NCBI RefSeq assembly: GCF_004010195.1
Contig: NC_057718.1
Coordinates: 59,230,838 to 59,265,280 of the forward strand
Length of the DNA stretch: 34,443 nt
Direction of reading: 5' to 3'
Origin: Chiloscyllium plagiosum
Taxonomy: Eukaryota
Shown here: one piece after another, positions 4,631 through 26,415 of the stretch
Position numbering within the stretch: position 1 is the first letter of the stretch
Layout of the letters: every line of letters begins with the position of its first letter
Notes under the pieces: generated by a model
Told to the model about the DNA's origin: nothing
Seen by the model: only the letters and a program-made list of their open reading frames with translations
Database searches by the model: none
Position numbers and translations under genes: made by a program

Positions 4631-5294
4631 CAGGGGAACCTCGATGGGCGCGTTTTCGCTTGGATAATCGATTATTCAGTTAATCAATTAAATGTCTTTC
4701 CTCTGGGGCTCGGAGTTTTTAAAGTCTGCTCCACGTTCAGGACACTGAGCAGCACATAGTGCGAGACCCCACTCTCAACTCCGCCTAACACCACCCCCCG
4801 CCCCCCCAACCCCACGCAGACAAGGGAGAATGTACAAACTCTACACAGTTTTGCCCAAGGCTGGAATCGAACCTGGGACCTTGGTGCTGTGAGGCAGCAG
4901 TGCTAACCACTGAGCCGCCATGCCTTTGTGGGGTAAGTCTCCATAAAGCGCGCGCACACACACACACATCTTTTTACGGCAACTTTTTGACAAGTTTCAC
5001 CTCTGCCCTGTACAGGACAATGTTGGTCAGATTATCTGGGGAAGTGGGGGGGCGTGGGCGGGAGGGGGGGTGTTTAGGGTACACCTCTATGTAGAACTCC
5101 AGGGAAAGTGTGGCGAGAGAGAGAGAACGGGAGGTCAGTCATTTGGAAACGGTGCCTGTTTAATCACTGTTAACCAAAGACACGTCACTGTTGGCAACAC
5201 GTCTTTGATGCAATGTTTCTATCGGGACCTCGAGATCTCCTTCGGATAATCCGATTTTCGGATAATTGGTGTTCAGATAATCGAGGTTCCTCTG
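4631..5294. mobile_element. Non-autonomous Tc1/mariner-pogo (Tigger-like) DNA transposon containing a SINE fragment
   Basis: TIRs CAGGGGAACCTCGAT / ATCGAGGTTCCTCTG flanked by TA on both sides (4629-4630, 5295-5296). Confidence 0.75.
4811..4924 (-). mobile_element. HE1/V-SINE 5' fragment
   Basis: tRNA-like head GGCTCAGTGGTTAGCACTGCTGCCTCACAGC...GGTTCGATTCC plus start of the central domain. Confidence 0.85.
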
Positions 5295-5361: not shown

Positions 5362-5683
5362 ACTCCCTACAGTATAGAAACAGGCCGTTTGGCCCAACAA
5401 GTCCTTACCGACCCGTCCGAAGAGTAACCCACCCACACCCTTTCCCCTTCCCTGTATTTCCCCCTGACTAATGCACCTAACACTACTGGCAATTTAGCAT
5501 GGCGAATTCACCTGACCTGAACATCTTTGGACTGTGGGAGGAAACCCGAGTACCCAGAGGAAACCAACGCAGACACGGGGAGAATGTGCAAACTCCACAC
5601 AGACAGTTACCCAAGGCTGCAATTAAACCAGGTCCCTGGCGCTGTGAGGTAGCAGTACTAACCACTGTGCCACCGTGCCGCCC
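5362..5683 (-). mobile_element. HE1/V-SINE, near full length
   Basis: tRNA head, V-domain-like core (GGAGTTTGCACATTCTCCCCGTGTCTGCG...CCTCCCACAGTCCAAAGATG) and LINE-derived tail. Confidence 0.9.
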
Positions 5684-6234: not shown

Positions 6235-6290
6235 TATTTTAACGACATACATGGCATCATCACCAACATTGTCTTCTGTCGCAGGAGAAG
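6235..6290 (-). CDS. VRK2: VRK2-like kinase coding exon (2nd; catalytic Lys)
   Basis: 56 nt, acceptor ttatttctAG, donor GTaagt; (A)SPATEDNVGDDAMYVVKI. Confidence 0.9.
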
Positions 6291-6452: not shown

Positions 6453-7476
6453 AAATAAAAGGTAACAAGATCAAAACAAAAGTGAACAGTAATTATCAAA
6501 ACAAAACATCATCACTGGATTGCCAACTGAAGAATGACAGTGAAATAGAAACTTGATGACCAGTTACTTTAATGCTTGTTCCTGCAGTAGAACTTCCCTA
6601 ACTCAGGCCTGTAAGTATCTATTTTCTGTTTTACATTGGGAAGCCAAAGCATTGCAATGACGTACTGCAAGGCACGTTCCAGTCCAGTGTGCTCACTCAA
6701 CAAGAAGCAGGCACTATTGGCTAATAGGAGGTTCCTCACTACATTATATCACAAGATTGTAACCAAATAGTGCAGGGAACTTATAAAATTAGATCCCTGA
6801 TTTTATTTAAAATTAGTTGATCTCAGTCAAGATATTAGTGGTAATGTGGCAATGACTATGCATCAGAGCAAAAAAAACTCTCCATTTATAATTATTAAGC
6901 AGTATTTTTGATGCACTGTTTAGTAAAAGGATGAGATAGCATTCCATCCATAATTAGATCAGAAGCTTGACATTAATCAAGTTATTACAGTGAAAATACC
7001 TGTTGAGCATCATGCTGATAGGGTTAGTTGTACAAATAAAAATAGAATGACATGTCACATGCTTCAGTTCTATCCTTTAAGAGTCAAAATTGGACTGAAT
7101 TGGAGTAGGCTAGTCAGTCCAACTAGCCTGCTCTGTTATTGGTTAATCTTATTTCTCCCATCTGCTTTATATTCTTTGGAATCCCTATTTCTCAATTAAG
7201 TATGTATTTTTTTTTCAAAACATTAATTTTTTTCAATTACTTAAATTCAGGTGTCTCCGTGGGGAATCAATGATGAATGCTCTTCAGGGGTTCCCTATCC
7301 CTCCCAAAATAGAAGGGGCAACCCAAAGTTATAGACAACAAAGTAGTTTCCTACTTTGGTAATCCAGTACCAAATTCCAGACTCAAGATCACACTGTTTT
7401 AGCGAGTTTTGAGAAGATTTGTAGCTCAGGTTGAGGTTCTGGATGTAAATTTGCTCGCTGAGCTGGAAGGTTTGTT

Positions 7477-7518
7477 TTCAGATGTTTCAACACCATACTG
7501 GGTAACATCATCAGTGAA
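7477..7518 (-). ncRNA. Minimal type I hammerhead ribozyme motif (partly decayed)
   Basis: UUCA-CUGAUGA-U-GUUACC-CAGUAU-GGUGUU-GAAAC-AUC-UGAA: core boxes intact, 4-bp stem I. Confidence 0.65.
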
Positions 7519-7705
7519 CCTCCAGTGAAGCAATGGTGTTAGTGACCCGCTTTCTATTTGTGTGTTTAGGTTTCCTTGGGCTGGTGACATCATTTCAGAG
7601 GAAAAGACCTCCAAGAAAAAGAACAGGAAATGACATCACCGACCCTAGGAAACCTAAACACATAAATAGAAAGCAGGTCATTAACACCAGTGCCTCACTG
7701 GAGGC

Positions 7706-7745
7706 TCACTGATGATGTTACCTAGTATGGTGACAAAATGTCTGA
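7706..7745 (+). ncRNA. Minimal hammerhead ribozyme motif (CpG-decayed core)
   Basis: UCA-CUGAUGA-U-GUUACC-UAGUAU-GGUGAC-AAAAU-GUC-UGA; two CpG-type transitions from GAC-GAAAC-GUC. Confidence 0.55.
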
Positions 7746-8347
7746 AAACGAACCTTCCAGCTCAGCGAGCAACCTTACTTCCTCACACTGGCTTTTCAAA
7801 ACAAAGTTATTGTTCAAGTTTCTGCTCAAACTACTTGGCAGAGCTTCACAAGGCAAAACCTCGCATGATGCAGTGTGTTTAGGCAAAGTTTTTGAATGGA
7901 ATTGTGTGTTTTTTGCCTTGCAATGAAAAATATTCGGGATATAGTTAAGTGTGGGAATCTGATTCTCATTTTACAAATATAAATAAAAGTGATTAAATAC
8001 AATAAGTAAACATTTTGCCAGGTGTACAGTCTAACACCTAAGTAAACTGATTTTAAGCAACTGAAAATGATGAACAAAACTGTACATCATTTATTAGTTT
8101 CACTGGTACATACTATCCAGATTATTGGCATATTTAGCAACTTGTGAAAAAGGTACCTCGAAGACTTTTGCTGGTAACTGGCAAGTATCGTACACACCAT
8201 GCAAGTGCTGGCAACAATTATTTTTAACAAGCAAGAACCTAATTATCATCCCTTGACATTCAATGACATTGCAATCACTGTATCCCCTACTGTCAACATT
8301 TGTAGAGTTACCACTGACATGAAACTAAACCAGTCCAGCCATGCAAA

Positions 8348-8611
8348 GGGAAGCATGGAGGCTCAGTGGTTAGCACTGTTCAATTCTACCCCCGGGTGAA
8401 TGTCTGTGTAAAGTTTATATATTTTCCCTATGTCGGTGTCAGTTTTCTCCAGGTGCTCCAGATTCCTCCCACAGTCCAAAGATGTGCAGGTTAGGTGGAA
8501 TAGCCATAGGAAATGCAGGTTTACAGGGATAGGGTAGGAGTGGGATGCTCTTTGTAGGGTCAGTGTAACTGGATGGGCCAAATGGACTCTTTCTTCACTG
8601 TAGGGATTCTA
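8348..8611 (+). mobile_element. HE1/V-SINE (degenerate)
   Basis: GGCTCAGTGGTTAGCACTG head, CCTCCCACAGTCCAAAGATGTGCAGG core and LINE-like tail. Confidence 0.85.
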
Positions 8612-12350: not shown

Positions 12351-12486
12351 CCAAGTGTATCAGCCCAAATCCACCATTACCAATAACTTTCCCAAGTTTC
12401 CAGTGTTTCTTTTCAAAATCCACAAGGATAAAGCCCTCAGGGAGAGGATCAGGAAGCTTCTTTCTCATGTTGCCTTTGGGTGGCAT
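12351..12486 (-). CDS. VRK2: VRK2-like kinase first coding exon (exon begins at 12491 with 5 nt of 5'UTR)
   Basis: Acceptor ccttttgttAG, then GTCTG ATG; 136 coding nt, donor GTaaga; MPPKGNMRKKLPDPLPEGFILVDFEKKHWKLGKVIGNGGFGLIHL with the Gly-rich loop; the short MPPK...KLP.P.PEG N-terminus is VRK2-like rather than VRK1-like. Confidence 0.92.
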
Positions 12487-14663: not shown

Positions 14664-15739
14664 TAGTTAAGGGACAAATCTAAAGGAAAAATAAATGAGA
14701 TATAACTGGCCAGTTCACTCAAAAGGACTCCACGATCCATAACATCACCAACACATAGAATTATACTTGCTTGGATTCGGACGACACTAATGCATGCAAA
14801 CCTCTTCCGGAAGGCTCCGAGGAATATTCATTTAATTCTTATAACAGAGATTCTATTCTCCACATTTTCAATAAATTGATAATAAGAGGACAACCTGGCA
14901 GCAATCAAACCTCTGTTCACAAACAGAATCCTTCTGGCCTAAACACAACCAGGCCCAGTTCAAACTCTGGCCTCTCTCTGCTTGACTAACAGTCTCCACA
15001 CAAGGTCCGAGTTGATATTCAACATCTGCCATCTGCTTGAGCATAAGTGTCTATAAAGCACTTTTTAATAAGAATCAGTCTGTAATTAACTTACAGGTCT
15101 GACCTTAAATGCAAAATTCAGCTTGTTTGTTCTTATGCTTTGGTCAACATAAGCTGCTGTTTGCAGTCCAAAGGTGATCTTCAGCTCTCAGCTCACAGTT
15201 CACAGCTACAAACCAAAAATGATTTTAAAAAAATGAAATACCGTTGACGGTCTGACAGCAACTTTGGGAATGCATCAGAACAATTTGGAGTTGCAGTTGC
15301 TGACAATAAGTCTATGCTCCACCACAGGGGACAATATTGACTTGTCCCTCCCCACAACCTACTCCATATCAGAGATCTCCAAATCATTCAGTGAGCTGGC
15401 AAACTCACTTTTACACTGCTGATCGCATTGTAAAACTCCTTTAAAAAAATTATGTGGTTGAATGTGATGGGATTGTTTTAAAGTGCATTCACTTCATAAT
15501 TACAAATCAACAATTCTGCTTCTATCACAATCCACTATAATTATTTTTCAGTATTTGAAATCGAATTTAGAAATGGGGGAATTCAATGCTTCTAGCTTCC
15601 AAATTTATTCTATTCACTGACATGATAACTGCTGGATGGCTGGAGATCCCCTTGACACTGCAGCCAGATTCAAACTGCCATCAGGAAAGAGGAAGTCAGC
15701 ACATAAAGTTACCAGATCTCAGTCAACAGAGTCAGATAT

Positions 15740-15855
15740 GGATGTAGGTTTGCTCGCTGAGCTGCAAGGTTCATTGAAAATGAACCTTCCAGCTCAGAGA
15801 GCAAACCTACATCCAGAACCTCAACGTGAGCTACAAATCTTCTCAAAACTCGCTA
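15740..15855 (+). mobile_element. Miniature fold-back element of the same family as 7400-7782
   Basis: ~37-bp inverted arms with a 3-nt loop plus 40-nt tail; TSD agagtcagatat / agagtcagttat (15728-15739, 15856-15867). Confidence 0.8.
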
Positions 15856-17141
15856 AGAGTCAGTTATCTCCAGCATGAGTGGCATGTGACCACATTTTGC
15901 CATTCAATAAAAAAAATCAGGCTGAATCTGAATTCCATAGCCCAGAAAAAGGAAAAACATGGTCAGATTAACATTGACTCCTTTTTTATGTTGACTCCAT
16001 GGTGTAAAGATTTACCAAATAATGAAGCTGGAACATATTTTTCCAAAAATCATTGACTTGAATTGGAATGCAATGCAATACAATTATTCTAAATGTATTG
16101 GTTGTTCCCCCATGAATTTAATGAATATCTGAATTTCCACTGGTTGGTCAGACTCATCATTAGAAGTGTACGGTTTGATGAAGTTCTTTACTTGTATCCA
16201 TTTTTGTACTGAACAAACCAGCAATCTTTGACTGATAACATTGATGGACCAGATAAATCTCGGGGTTGCTAGGCGGCAATGTTCAATTCTGCCCAGCAAT
16301 AGGGAGAAACTGCCAAGTATTTGATAGGTCACTCAGGACAGTACCAAAATGTAGTTCAAAGGTTACAGGCAGTGAATGTGTATTTGGAGAAACAGACTTT
16401 TCCCAATTATGTTGATAATAATTTGCTTGTTCACTAGCCCCAGTATCTCATCATTTGTTAATTATTTCTTTCAAAAGGTTCTTTACTTCTCCCCCAAACC
16501 CACAATTCAAAGCCAATGAACAAGTTGGTTTGTCTTTACATAAGTTTCAAGTCTCTAATCTGTGCATCACCTCAAAGGAAGCTCTTTGTCATTCACTTAA
16601 GGCCTTAATACTTTTCCAATCGCTTTTAAAAGGGTCTACATATTCCATGTATTAACTTGGTGAGGCATGATTAAAACAACGGAAAAATCAGTTCTTCACA
16701 GAAAAACAGCACGCTTTAATCACAATGCCAATTCATTGCTTCAAAAATCCCATCTACAAATACAGAAATTCATTTTATATTAATACACAAAACTATTTGC
16801 TAGTTATCTTGAGGTTCGTGAACCAGTATCTTAGCAGCTCAAAGCAAATGTTGTATTTAAAAGCTTTCAAAATATATGTTTTAATCCATTGCATCCAAAA
16901 GGTGTTGTCATTAATTTTTGAAGCCATTCTGAAAGCCTGCAAACAAGTGCATTGGCGTAGAATTGTTACGATCACTAATTCACACTTGAGCAGGCTGCTG
17001 CAAGGCTACTTGTCACCTGGAGGTGAACCTTGAACTTATTGTTGCTCACTCCTCCAATACACTTGAGGAAGAAATGATAGAACCCAGATTACACGTCGAA
17101 TGGAAGAGAGAGACACAAAGTAAACTGCCCAGCAGGTAGGG

Positions 17142-19609: not shown

Positions 19610-19723
19610 TGTGACCTCTACCATGAGGTGCACACACCCTCTGGGGCGATATCTTCACTTCATCAAAGACCTCATGTCGAACACAATGCTGTGCGATACA
19701 CACAAAACATGGCGTCAGAAGTG
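19610..19723 (+). mobile_element. Partial LTR followed by a primer-binding site
   Basis: LTR-like end ...AAAACA directly followed by TGGCGTCAGAAGTG (19710-19723), resembling the complement of a tRNA-Leu 3' end. Confidence 0.6.
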
Positions 19724-19974
19724 ACATTGAGGTGAATGTAGCAGACTATGAGAACGTATAGCAAGAGGCAGAGACACACTGGTATGTAAATCTGAGTTGC
19801 AACGGGAAGAAATTAATGAAACAAAGATCAATGAAGCAAGCTAATCAGAAGTGACATTGAGGTGAATGTAGCAGACTATGAGAAAGTATAGCAAGAGGCA
19901 GAGACACACTGGTATGTAAATCTGAGTTGCAACAGGAAGAAATTAATGAAACAAAGATCAATGAAGCAAGCTAA
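19715..19974 (+). repeat. 130-bp tandem duplication (2 copies)
   Basis: 19715-19844 vs 19845-19974, two substitutions. Confidence 0.95.
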
Positions 19975-20065
19975 AGTTCAAACACTCATTAAGAGAAAAT
20001 GGATGCAGCTTTACCTTACCATCTCCTTTTCAAATGAGAAGAGATATGGAGCAAATCAAGAGCAA

Positions 20066-20364
20066 GGGGTGGCACAGTGGCTCAGTGGTTAGCACTGCCG
20101 CCTCACAGCACCAGGGTCCCAGGTTCAATTCCAGCCTCGGGCGACTGCCTAAGTGTCTGTGTGGGTTTCCTCTGGGTGCTCCAGTTTTCTCCCACAGTCC
20201 AAATATGTGCAGGTCCGGTGAATTGGCCGTGCTAAACTGGCCTTAGTGTTAGGTGCATTAGTCAGATGGAAATGGGTCTGAGTGGGATACTCTTCGGTGG
20301 GTCAGTGTGGATTTGTTGAGCCGAAGGGCCTATTTCCACACTGTAGGAAATCTAATCTAATCTA
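20066..20364 (+). mobile_element. HE1/V-SINE with internal deletion and (AATCT)n tail
   Basis: tRNA head, core, tail ending aatctaatctaatcta. Confidence 0.9.
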
Positions 20365-21453: not shown

Positions 21454-21740
21454 TCATAGAAATATAGAATACCACATTGCAGAAAGAGGCCATTTGGCCA
21501 ATATTAATGCACTGATAATCCAATGAGCATCCCACCCAGACCCAGACCCCCACCCTATCCCTGTAACTCCGCATTTACCACAGCCAAATCAACCTAACTG
21601 CACAACTTTGGACTGTTGGAGGAAATCCAGACAAAGGGGAGAACGTGTAAACGCCATACATCAGTTACCTAAGATTGGAATCGAACCAGTGTCCCAGATG
21701 CTGTTAGGCAGGAGTGATAACCACTGAGTCACCATGCCAC
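21454..21740 (-). mobile_element. HE1/V-SINE (degenerate)
   Basis: Reverse complement of head (GACTCAGTGGTTATCAC...GGTTCGATTCC), core and tail. Confidence 0.85.
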
Positions 21741-25919: not shown

Positions 25920-26415
25920 GAGTCATAGAAATTACAGCACTGAAACAGGCCCTTGGGACCAACTCGGCTATATGCCGACCAGATATCCTAGCCTAACCTA
26001 ATCTAGTCCCATTTGCCAGCGCCTGAACCATATTCCTGTAAACCCTTTCTATTCCTATACTCATCCAGATGCATTTTGAATGTTGTAATTATACCAGCCT
26101 CTACCACTTCCTCTGGCAGCTCATTCCATACACGGACCATATACCTGAAAAAGTTGTCTGTTGGGTCCCTTTTGAAATTTTCCCCTCTCAACCTAAACCT
26201 ATGCCCTCTAGTTCTGGACTCCCCCATCCCAGGGAAAAGACCTTGTCTATTTACCTTATTCATGCCCCTCATAATTTTGTAAACCTCTATAAGGTCACCC
26301 CTCAGCGTCTGACACTCCAGGGGAAACAGCCCATGCCCTTCATGATTTTATAAACCTCTATAAGGTCGCCCCTCAGCCTCCAGCACTCCAGGGAATACAG
26401 CCCCAGCCAATTTGC
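25920..26415 (-). mobile_element. CR1/HER1 LINE 3' fragment with a 71-bp tandem duplication at its 5' end
   Basis: SRTRGHRF..VRVWNELPEEVVEAG...FKMHLD; diverged repeat units 26262-26332 and 26333-26403. Confidence 0.9.

Follow-up and report, generated by a model that had tools for sequence, protein, structure and literature searches.

A head-to-head Penelope-like insertion in a VRK2 intron of Chiloscyllium plagiosum, from a family whose shortest copies are often joined at a predicted hammerhead cut site

In the insertion units of EN+ Penelope-like elements (PLEs), an inverted, 5'-truncated copy lies head to head at the 5' end, a tail of 30-40 bp is found at one end, and there are target duplications of 8-10 bp. 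The sections of the papers drawn on here describe this inverted-plus-tail layout qualitatively and call its origin unresolved (PMC8557442, PMC3846280). The PAc element of Anolis carolinensis is another point of comparison. As far as the cited sections go, its RT precedes GIY-YIG, its ORF starts at stem II of a hammerhead, and uncut RNA is its main template (PMC11167929). In vitro, both target strands are cut and extended and two start sites bound the tail, with no difference in start site between the strands (PMC11167929). The same sections report that no RNA reads were found whose start or end lies at the cut site, and they do not treat inverted insertions.

Minimal hammerheads, according to the cited parts of Cervera and De la Pena (PMC4209133), have an extra base between positions 9 and 10.1, a long stem II, a short stem I, and a palindrome with no stem III. 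They need a dimer, opposite-strand pairs 100-700 bp apart have been reported, and Cervera 2014 states that in vivo evidence of cleavage is lacking (PMC4209133). Non-LTR retrozymes, in the part of their description used here, are pLTR-derived, hammerhead-bearing, and non-coding, as is the element reported below, and they form head-to-tail tandem arrays (bioRxiv 10.64898/2026.07.22.740005).

We analysed a window of 34,443 nucleotides of C. plagiosum DNA (contig NC_057718.1), which contains a fold-back in which two 3' ends of a Penelope-like element, both of them 5'-truncated, meet head to head (Table 1). Its inverted arms, each of 156 nt and separated by 30 nt, are 87% complementary and fold into a hairpin of -258 kcal/mol (z -26 against 100 shuffles). 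The 8-bp target duplication that encloses them scores 7.8, compared with a null 95th percentile of 5.25. Alignment, fold, and duplication score agree with the anatomy that a first-pass annotation, made from the window's letters, had described. Two of its details were only partly right. The tail, which it had called single-copy, is one-sided within the element, but it sits on thousands of family copies, where it is bounded by two 3' end sites at about +4 and -35 relative to the chosen family reference point. The arms are indeed 30 nt apart, but about 19 bases of that spacer are parent sequence, through which the right arm carries on as far as the final codons of the parent ORF. The one-sided tail of ~40 nt resembles that of EN+ Penelope-like units in the cited papers, whereas the window's unit, unlike theirs, consists of two truncated ends only (PMC8557442, PMC3846280).

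The host gene is a VRK kinase with VRK2 as its best match, on the minus strand. Because the fold-back lies between the first coding exon and an in-frame candidate exon, it is intronic, just where the first-pass annotation had put it. SINE-like repeat copies in both orientations also occupy the VRK2 introns (4851-4924, 5456-5679, 8343-8601, 20062-20273, and 21474-21740) and could be an additional source of intronic dsRNA. Short tandem duplications were seen at 19715-19974 (130-nt unit, 98%) and 26261-26402 (71-nt unit, 86%).

Table 1. Features of the two fold-backs and of the host gene, in window positions
Feature	Position	Strand	Remark
Target-site duplication, left copy, TCACACTG	7389-7396		8 bp; family median 12 bp
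Penelope tail, ~40 nt between the family's two 3' end sites	7399-7440	-	Family contigs end at 7399/7400
Tail-bearing arm, 3' pLTR, subfamily A	7441-7596	-	Sense strand is the VRK2 pre-mRNA strand
Minimal type I hammerhead motif	7478-7518	-	Predicted cut between 7481 and 7480
Junction	7597-7626		~11 nt of filler or remnant, then parent sequence 7608-7626
Tail-less inverted arm, 3' pLTR, subfamily A	7627-7782	+	Ends at the second end site
Minimal hammerhead motif	7705-7746	+	G12 to A (7735) and C to T (7739), both CpG decay
Target-site duplication, right copy, TCACACTG	7783-7790		
VRK2 first coding exon, upstream boundary of host intron	12351-12486	-	Best match human VRK2, E 7e-7
Candidate next VRK2 exon, downstream boundary of host intron	6235-6290	-	56 nt, frame-compatible; from splice signals and phase only
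Second fold-back, same family	15728-15867		~118 bp between 12-bp duplications (11/12)
Second fold-back, tail-less arm	15740-15775	-	
Second fold-back, tailed arm	15775-15855	+	Starts on the very base that follows the hammerhead cut site (C17)

The first-pass annotation had proposed a Penelope-like origin and a search for further copies and a parent, and that search succeeded. Relatives number in the thousands: a 30-mer taken from the motif has 722 exact matches in the genome, and a 22-mer that lies directly downstream has 5,477. Among 100 anchored copies, the common sequence reaches upstream into the region that encodes RT and GIY-YIG, its 5' ends being staggered. Translations of the longer copies carry RT and VIY-YIG motifs. 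One near-full pLTR-ORF-pLTR copy was found (L110/L140). Self-alignment and the reading frame of L140 place a pLTR at both ends, with the frame beginning at the hammerhead motif and running through the tail. The Pfam scores of the parent (GIY-YIG, E 0.004; RVT_1, E 0.09) are below the curated cut-offs because the open stretches are short, and at E 0.01 three stretches matched no relevant family. The best five database proteins were 61-79% identical; four are annotated in carpet sharks, and three carry PF00078.

The family combines the features of EN+ Penelope-like elements: RT followed by a C-terminal GIY-YIG, a pLTR at both ORF ends with the ORF start inside it, a tail of 30-40 bp at one end, an inverted 5'-truncated copy, and a short target duplication. 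Its domain order, its ORF start at stem II, and uncut RNA as the main template are also as described for PAc in the cited sections (PMC11167929), and from this overall likeness it might be labelled "Poseidon-type." The window's fold-back is almost certainly a by-product of Penelope, namely, a decayed 5'-truncated insertion of an RT plus GIY-YIG element. Random sampling hit one pLTR insertion of the family in 373 kb (39 random 10-kb stretches), which is too few for an estimate of copy number. At least three further hammerhead-bearing PLE families are present (L154:5671-5767, L171:5233-5359, L285-L294, and others), and a sister family also has tail/no-tail fold-backs.

We aligned all loci to the family reference and matched each end on the minus strand to the plus-strand end that followed it, up to a distance of 2.5 kb. 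The 3' ends form two clusters ~40 nt apart, which resemble the two start sites of PAc (PMC11167929). One tailed and one tail-less end were combined in 46 of 49 pairs in a hammerhead-anchored sample and in 44 of 47 in a sample anchored downstream of the hammerhead (84 loci after removal of 6 overlapping ones, all from contig C1). Together, 90/96 pairs were mixed (p 1e-20 against 50%). Among the six exceptions, five have no credible duplication, and that of the sixth is no more than a match in a T-run. Twenty pairs from a whole-element search were all mixed and were excluded from the counts as selected. Such strict pairing is not predicted by the in vitro data alone, because the strands there are equal in start site (PMC11167929). 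Target duplications exceeded the null in 74 of the 90 mixed pairs, with a median of 12 bp and a range of 7-17 bp, and their AT content was 67% versus 59%.

No two of the 90 tail/no-tail pairs in the pattern-anchored samples agree in their junction coordinates, and the window's exact junction recurred in none of its 19 other best fold-back matches. Total lengths run from ~120 to 2400 bp. In subfamily A, divergence from arm to arm (0.114) is similar to that from copy to copy (0.117), and the window's own arms differ by 0.10 at non-CpG positions. Because every junction differs and the arms have diverged like unrelated copies, the fold-back is not a self-propagating unit. Rather, fold-backs arise separately at each insertion. 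The non-coding derivative suggested at first pass is not supported as a unit; the parent itself codes for RT and GIY-YIG.

Of the 37 pairs that could be typed, 32 have both arms from one subfamily, against a mean of 10.5 and a maximum of 23 in shuffles, and 5 are discordant; a further 10 of the 47 pairs could not be typed, and the set includes query-selected loci. Subfamilies A, B, and C are equally diverged (about 6%) yet rarely mix within a pair. Sharing of rare variants between arms was slightly raised in A and B but not in C, on numbers too small to weigh. Of 64 simple junctions, 23 bring together arms whose 5' ends differ by no more than 25 nt, where shuffling gives a mean of 6.8. The other 41 were not near-symmetric, and 26 of the 90 pairs, which have long rearranged middles, had been set aside. 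Therefore, a single simple run-off is insufficient for all copies.

A partner arm was found at 46 of the 84 loci, which leaves about half unpaired. A few simple insertions with duplications exist, for example, L065 and L096, which end at the second priming site. Short inverted stubs were clear beside only a few of 65 unpaired arms, and most of these arms have neither a stub nor a nearby duplication. Later insertions or partners out of range could be involved. Several longer fold-backs (L030, L063, L085, L130, L135, L235, and others) have extra inverted or displaced ORF pieces between their arms, suggesting several template jumps per insertion. At L011:1878-2082, where the duplication is 15 bp, the tailed end occurs again after a fragment of a different repeat, which looks as though outside sequence had been taken in at insertion. 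Two near-identical 400-bp copies in direct tandem, ~600 bp apart, at L061:2182-3179 are probably a local duplication.

Each arm of the window's fold-back was said at first pass to hold a hammerhead motif damaged at its own positions, and it does. The minus-strand motif retains all 12 core bases, with damage to stem II and the loop-3 palindrome, while the plus-strand motif has lost the catalytic G12. Largely, CpG transitions account for the damage in both. On the core alone, the minus arm thus qualifies as a minimal hammerhead and the plus arm, for want of G12, does not. The ribozyme that had been reconstructed from the two arms is a real motif, but the 5' strand of stem I is CUCA in the family majority, not UUCA (C in 82% of 87 arms), which leaves most copies with a core-proximal stem I of 3 bp. 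The family majority has the CUGANGA, GAAA, and UH core, an unpaired base before stem II, and a palindrome replacing stem III. It resembles the minimal hammerhead of the cited sections (PMC4209133), although both copies in the window are damaged.

Rfam gave neither motif a hammerhead score, only generic hairpin (miRNA) matches below the gathering score, and when single strands are folded, the ribozyme structure is not preferred (z -1.3 to +0.5). All 12 core bases are retained in 32 of 89 arms that were not selected on the motif. G12 decays at 0.31 (n=97), compared with an ordinary CpG rate of 0.34. Non-CpG core positions change at 0.046, versus 0.084 elsewhere. This difference counts against a purely neutral reading and may reflect selection on source elements. 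By eye, two loci of the sister family (L154 and L171) have stem I changed on both sides, U-A becoming G-C; in stem II, a change on one side only is accompanied by one mismatch. The hammerhead in the fold-back is the pLTR motif of the parent, duplicated as a passenger.

We searched the genome with two motifs for very short fold-backs, which yielded 57 junctions, 50 of them listed. Nineteen of the 50 listed junctions have exactly the gap predicted if both arms start just after C17 and are joined blunt, against a uniform expectation of 1.9 (p 6e-15). By eye, another 12 have both arms at the cut base with filler or a one-base loss, for a total of 31/50, and about 5 of the 50 extend past the cut site. 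At 35 of these short fold-back loci, 42 of 70 arm ends fall on the base after C17, and 34 of the 35 are of the tail/no-tail type, each with its own duplication (two loci are duplicates). Because they have their own duplications and vary in their alleles at a subfamily site, these fold-backs are separate events. The blunt joints have zero overlap, the next parent base of each arm differing from the base read. A natural 4-nt palindrome three bases from the cut was used in only 1 of the 50 listed junctions.

A control search anchored at a featureless position gave 2 junctions versus 57, and conservation of the anchor accounts for at most about a fivefold difference. A control just upstream of the motif gave 67 junctions from several families, with a top class of 8 among the 50 listed, compared with 19/50 at the cut site (Fisher p 0.02). 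About 8 symmetric joints, such as G000:C7:29005037-29005086, make up a second hot spot ~50 nt upstream of the cut. Its short motif is common to several PLE families, and the site may mark where transcription starts or may reflect a symmetry of 2 nt. Among 19 junctions of the sister family, 6 have the gap of a 4-nt overlap at a palindrome starting at the cut, none is blunt, and 8 run past the cut; several are on unplaced contigs and may be duplicates. Because the palindrome starts at its cut site, this family is ambiguous and was not counted as support.

Copies that begin at the cut are a minority (2-3 of 84 loci), and more 5' ends fall on the motif's front edge. The cut-site copies contrast with the sections of the PAc study in which no RNA reads begin or end at the cut site (PMC11167929). 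A stop imposed by protein or structure at the same base is an alternative to a ribozyme cut. Judged from these genomic junctions, the joints of the shortest copies at the predicted cut are likely a DNA record of ribozyme activity in the living animal. The literature that we searched contained no report of inverted junctions at a hammerhead cut site, and the PLE papers of 2004-2006 or supplements may hold one.

The explanation that we favour, with a probability of roughly 0.8, is that the window holds a decayed 5'-truncated Penelope-like insertion whose head-to-head shape likely came from both target strands priming on the element's RNA. It builds on an observed parent, layout, and duplication, on junctions particular to each insertion, and on neutral-like divergence. 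An endonuclease would make a staggered cut of ~12 bp in AT-rich DNA. One target strand would then prime at the tail end, and its partner would do so ~40 nt upstream, the template being probably one and the same RNA molecule. Both cDNAs would copy the pLTR and stop, often near the same place, and end-joining would unite them blunt, with filler, or at microhomology. We consider it reasonably probable that the two primings were on one RNA. The window's copy is from uncut RNA, because both of its arms run through the motif, whereas a minority of family copies likely came from ribozyme-cut RNA. We put at slightly better than even the odds of a fuller account. In it, the fold-backs record one RNA primed twice, by each target strand at fixed sites 40 nt apart, with both cDNAs running off one RNA 5' end that was sometimes hammerhead-cut in the germ line, giving blunt, microhomology-free joints at the cut. 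In LINE-1 twin priming, both target strands also prime on one RNA, and an inversion results. However, annealing of the second LINE-1 primer takes place upstream, with the result that neither arm repeats the other, whereas here the start sites are fixed within 40 nt and the same sequence is copied twice.

In an alternative that we regard as unlikely, only one priming occurs, and the cDNA (or an antisense RNA) folds back, self-primes at a short symmetry, and copies itself into the second arm. This would explain why arms share a subfamily and why junctions are near-symmetric. Short inverted repeats or palindromes do underlie many junctions, both upstream of the hammerhead and in the sister family, junctions overlap in 19 of the 90 pairs, and self-priming of antisense RNA has been proposed for rotifer elements in the cited part of that work (PMC3846280). 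However, the zero overlap of the blunt cut-site joints and the near-absence of the adjacent palindrome from the listed junctions argue against it. It would also require copying to end at the second priming site on every occasion, and that site ends simple insertions as well. In its antisense form, it does not explain why ends should fall at a ribozyme site of the sense strand. We are equally doubtful that the target strands primed on two RNAs held by a protein dimer, with the concordance of arms due to one active source gene. The predicted dimer and both-strand extension in vitro (PMC11167929) favour two RNAs, and so does the dimeric action attributed to minimal hammerheads (PMC4209133), in the sections cited. 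Discordant-looking pairs (L005, L020, L097, and L122) and the very unequal arms of many pairs point the same way. However, two RNAs do not readily give strict tail/no-tail pairing or an excess of matched 5' ends, and the rarity of mixing among equally diverged subfamilies argues against them.

The first-pass annotation had loosely compared the fold-back with ambisense ribozyme-bearing RNAs. A non-coding unit that is transcribed from either strand, has a ribozyme in both polarities, and spreads or functions in fold-back form would suit the presence of a motif on both strands and the very stable hairpin. It is most improbable, given junctions that never recur, the spread of total lengths, and a coding parent. 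Both motifs are damaged and buried in duplex, and there is no common unit. An ambisense ribozyme-bearing replicon, which would have an intact ribozyme per polarity, was rejected. Classification as a non-LTR retrozyme was also rejected, because the window's element is a head-to-head by-product, not a head-to-tail tandem array (bioRxiv 10.64898/2026.07.22.740005). Inverted arms with a target duplication could likewise belong to a non-autonomous DNA transposon (MITE) as its terminal inverted repeats. We give that reading practically no weight, since the ends are asymmetric, the duplications vary from 7 to 17 bp, 5' truncation is staggered into RT and GIY-YIG, and there is no common interior. The sequence of the parent, with its RT plus GIY-YIG, refutes a DNA transposon, and on this the first-pass annotation was right.

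Intronic inverted repeats are common ADAR substrates, and a duplex of 156 bp could undergo incidental editing. The duplex in the pre-mRNA would be a physically plausible ADAR/Dicer substrate; incidental editing would not amount to function, of which there is no sign. Co-option of the duplex, edited or diced so as to affect VRK2 processing, is very unlikely. It is 156 bp long, 87% paired, and ~1.1 kb from the next 3' splice site, all in favour of such a role. However, the arms have diverged at the pace of unrelated copies, and among the 21 mismatches just 9 would be G-U on the pre-mRNA strand, compared with 7 on the other. No reads from the window's locus were found in runs X11 and X12. X12 gave no reads at all, and X11 gave 98, all partly on the stretch. 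Because none of these covers the unique flanks, they stem from copies elsewhere in the family. Five X11 molecules ending at 7481, one base off the predicted product end, were discarded as reads of other copies clipped near mismatches. The hairpin at VRK2 is probably inert or incidental dsRNA.

The window's locus itself is ordinary, and the interest lies in the statistics of the family. The counts of paired ends, concordant arms, and junctions come from the present analysis, whereas the cited papers describe the layout qualitatively. They bear on the origin of the inverted-plus-tail insertions of Penelope, which the papers cited above left open. They also bear on whether weak minimal hammerheads cut in vivo, a matter raised by the cited sections of PMC4209133 and PMC11167929. 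The peak at the cut base, the tail/no-tail pairing, and the common source of the two arms yield sharp predictions for the in vitro system and for two-motif searches in other PLE-rich genomes.
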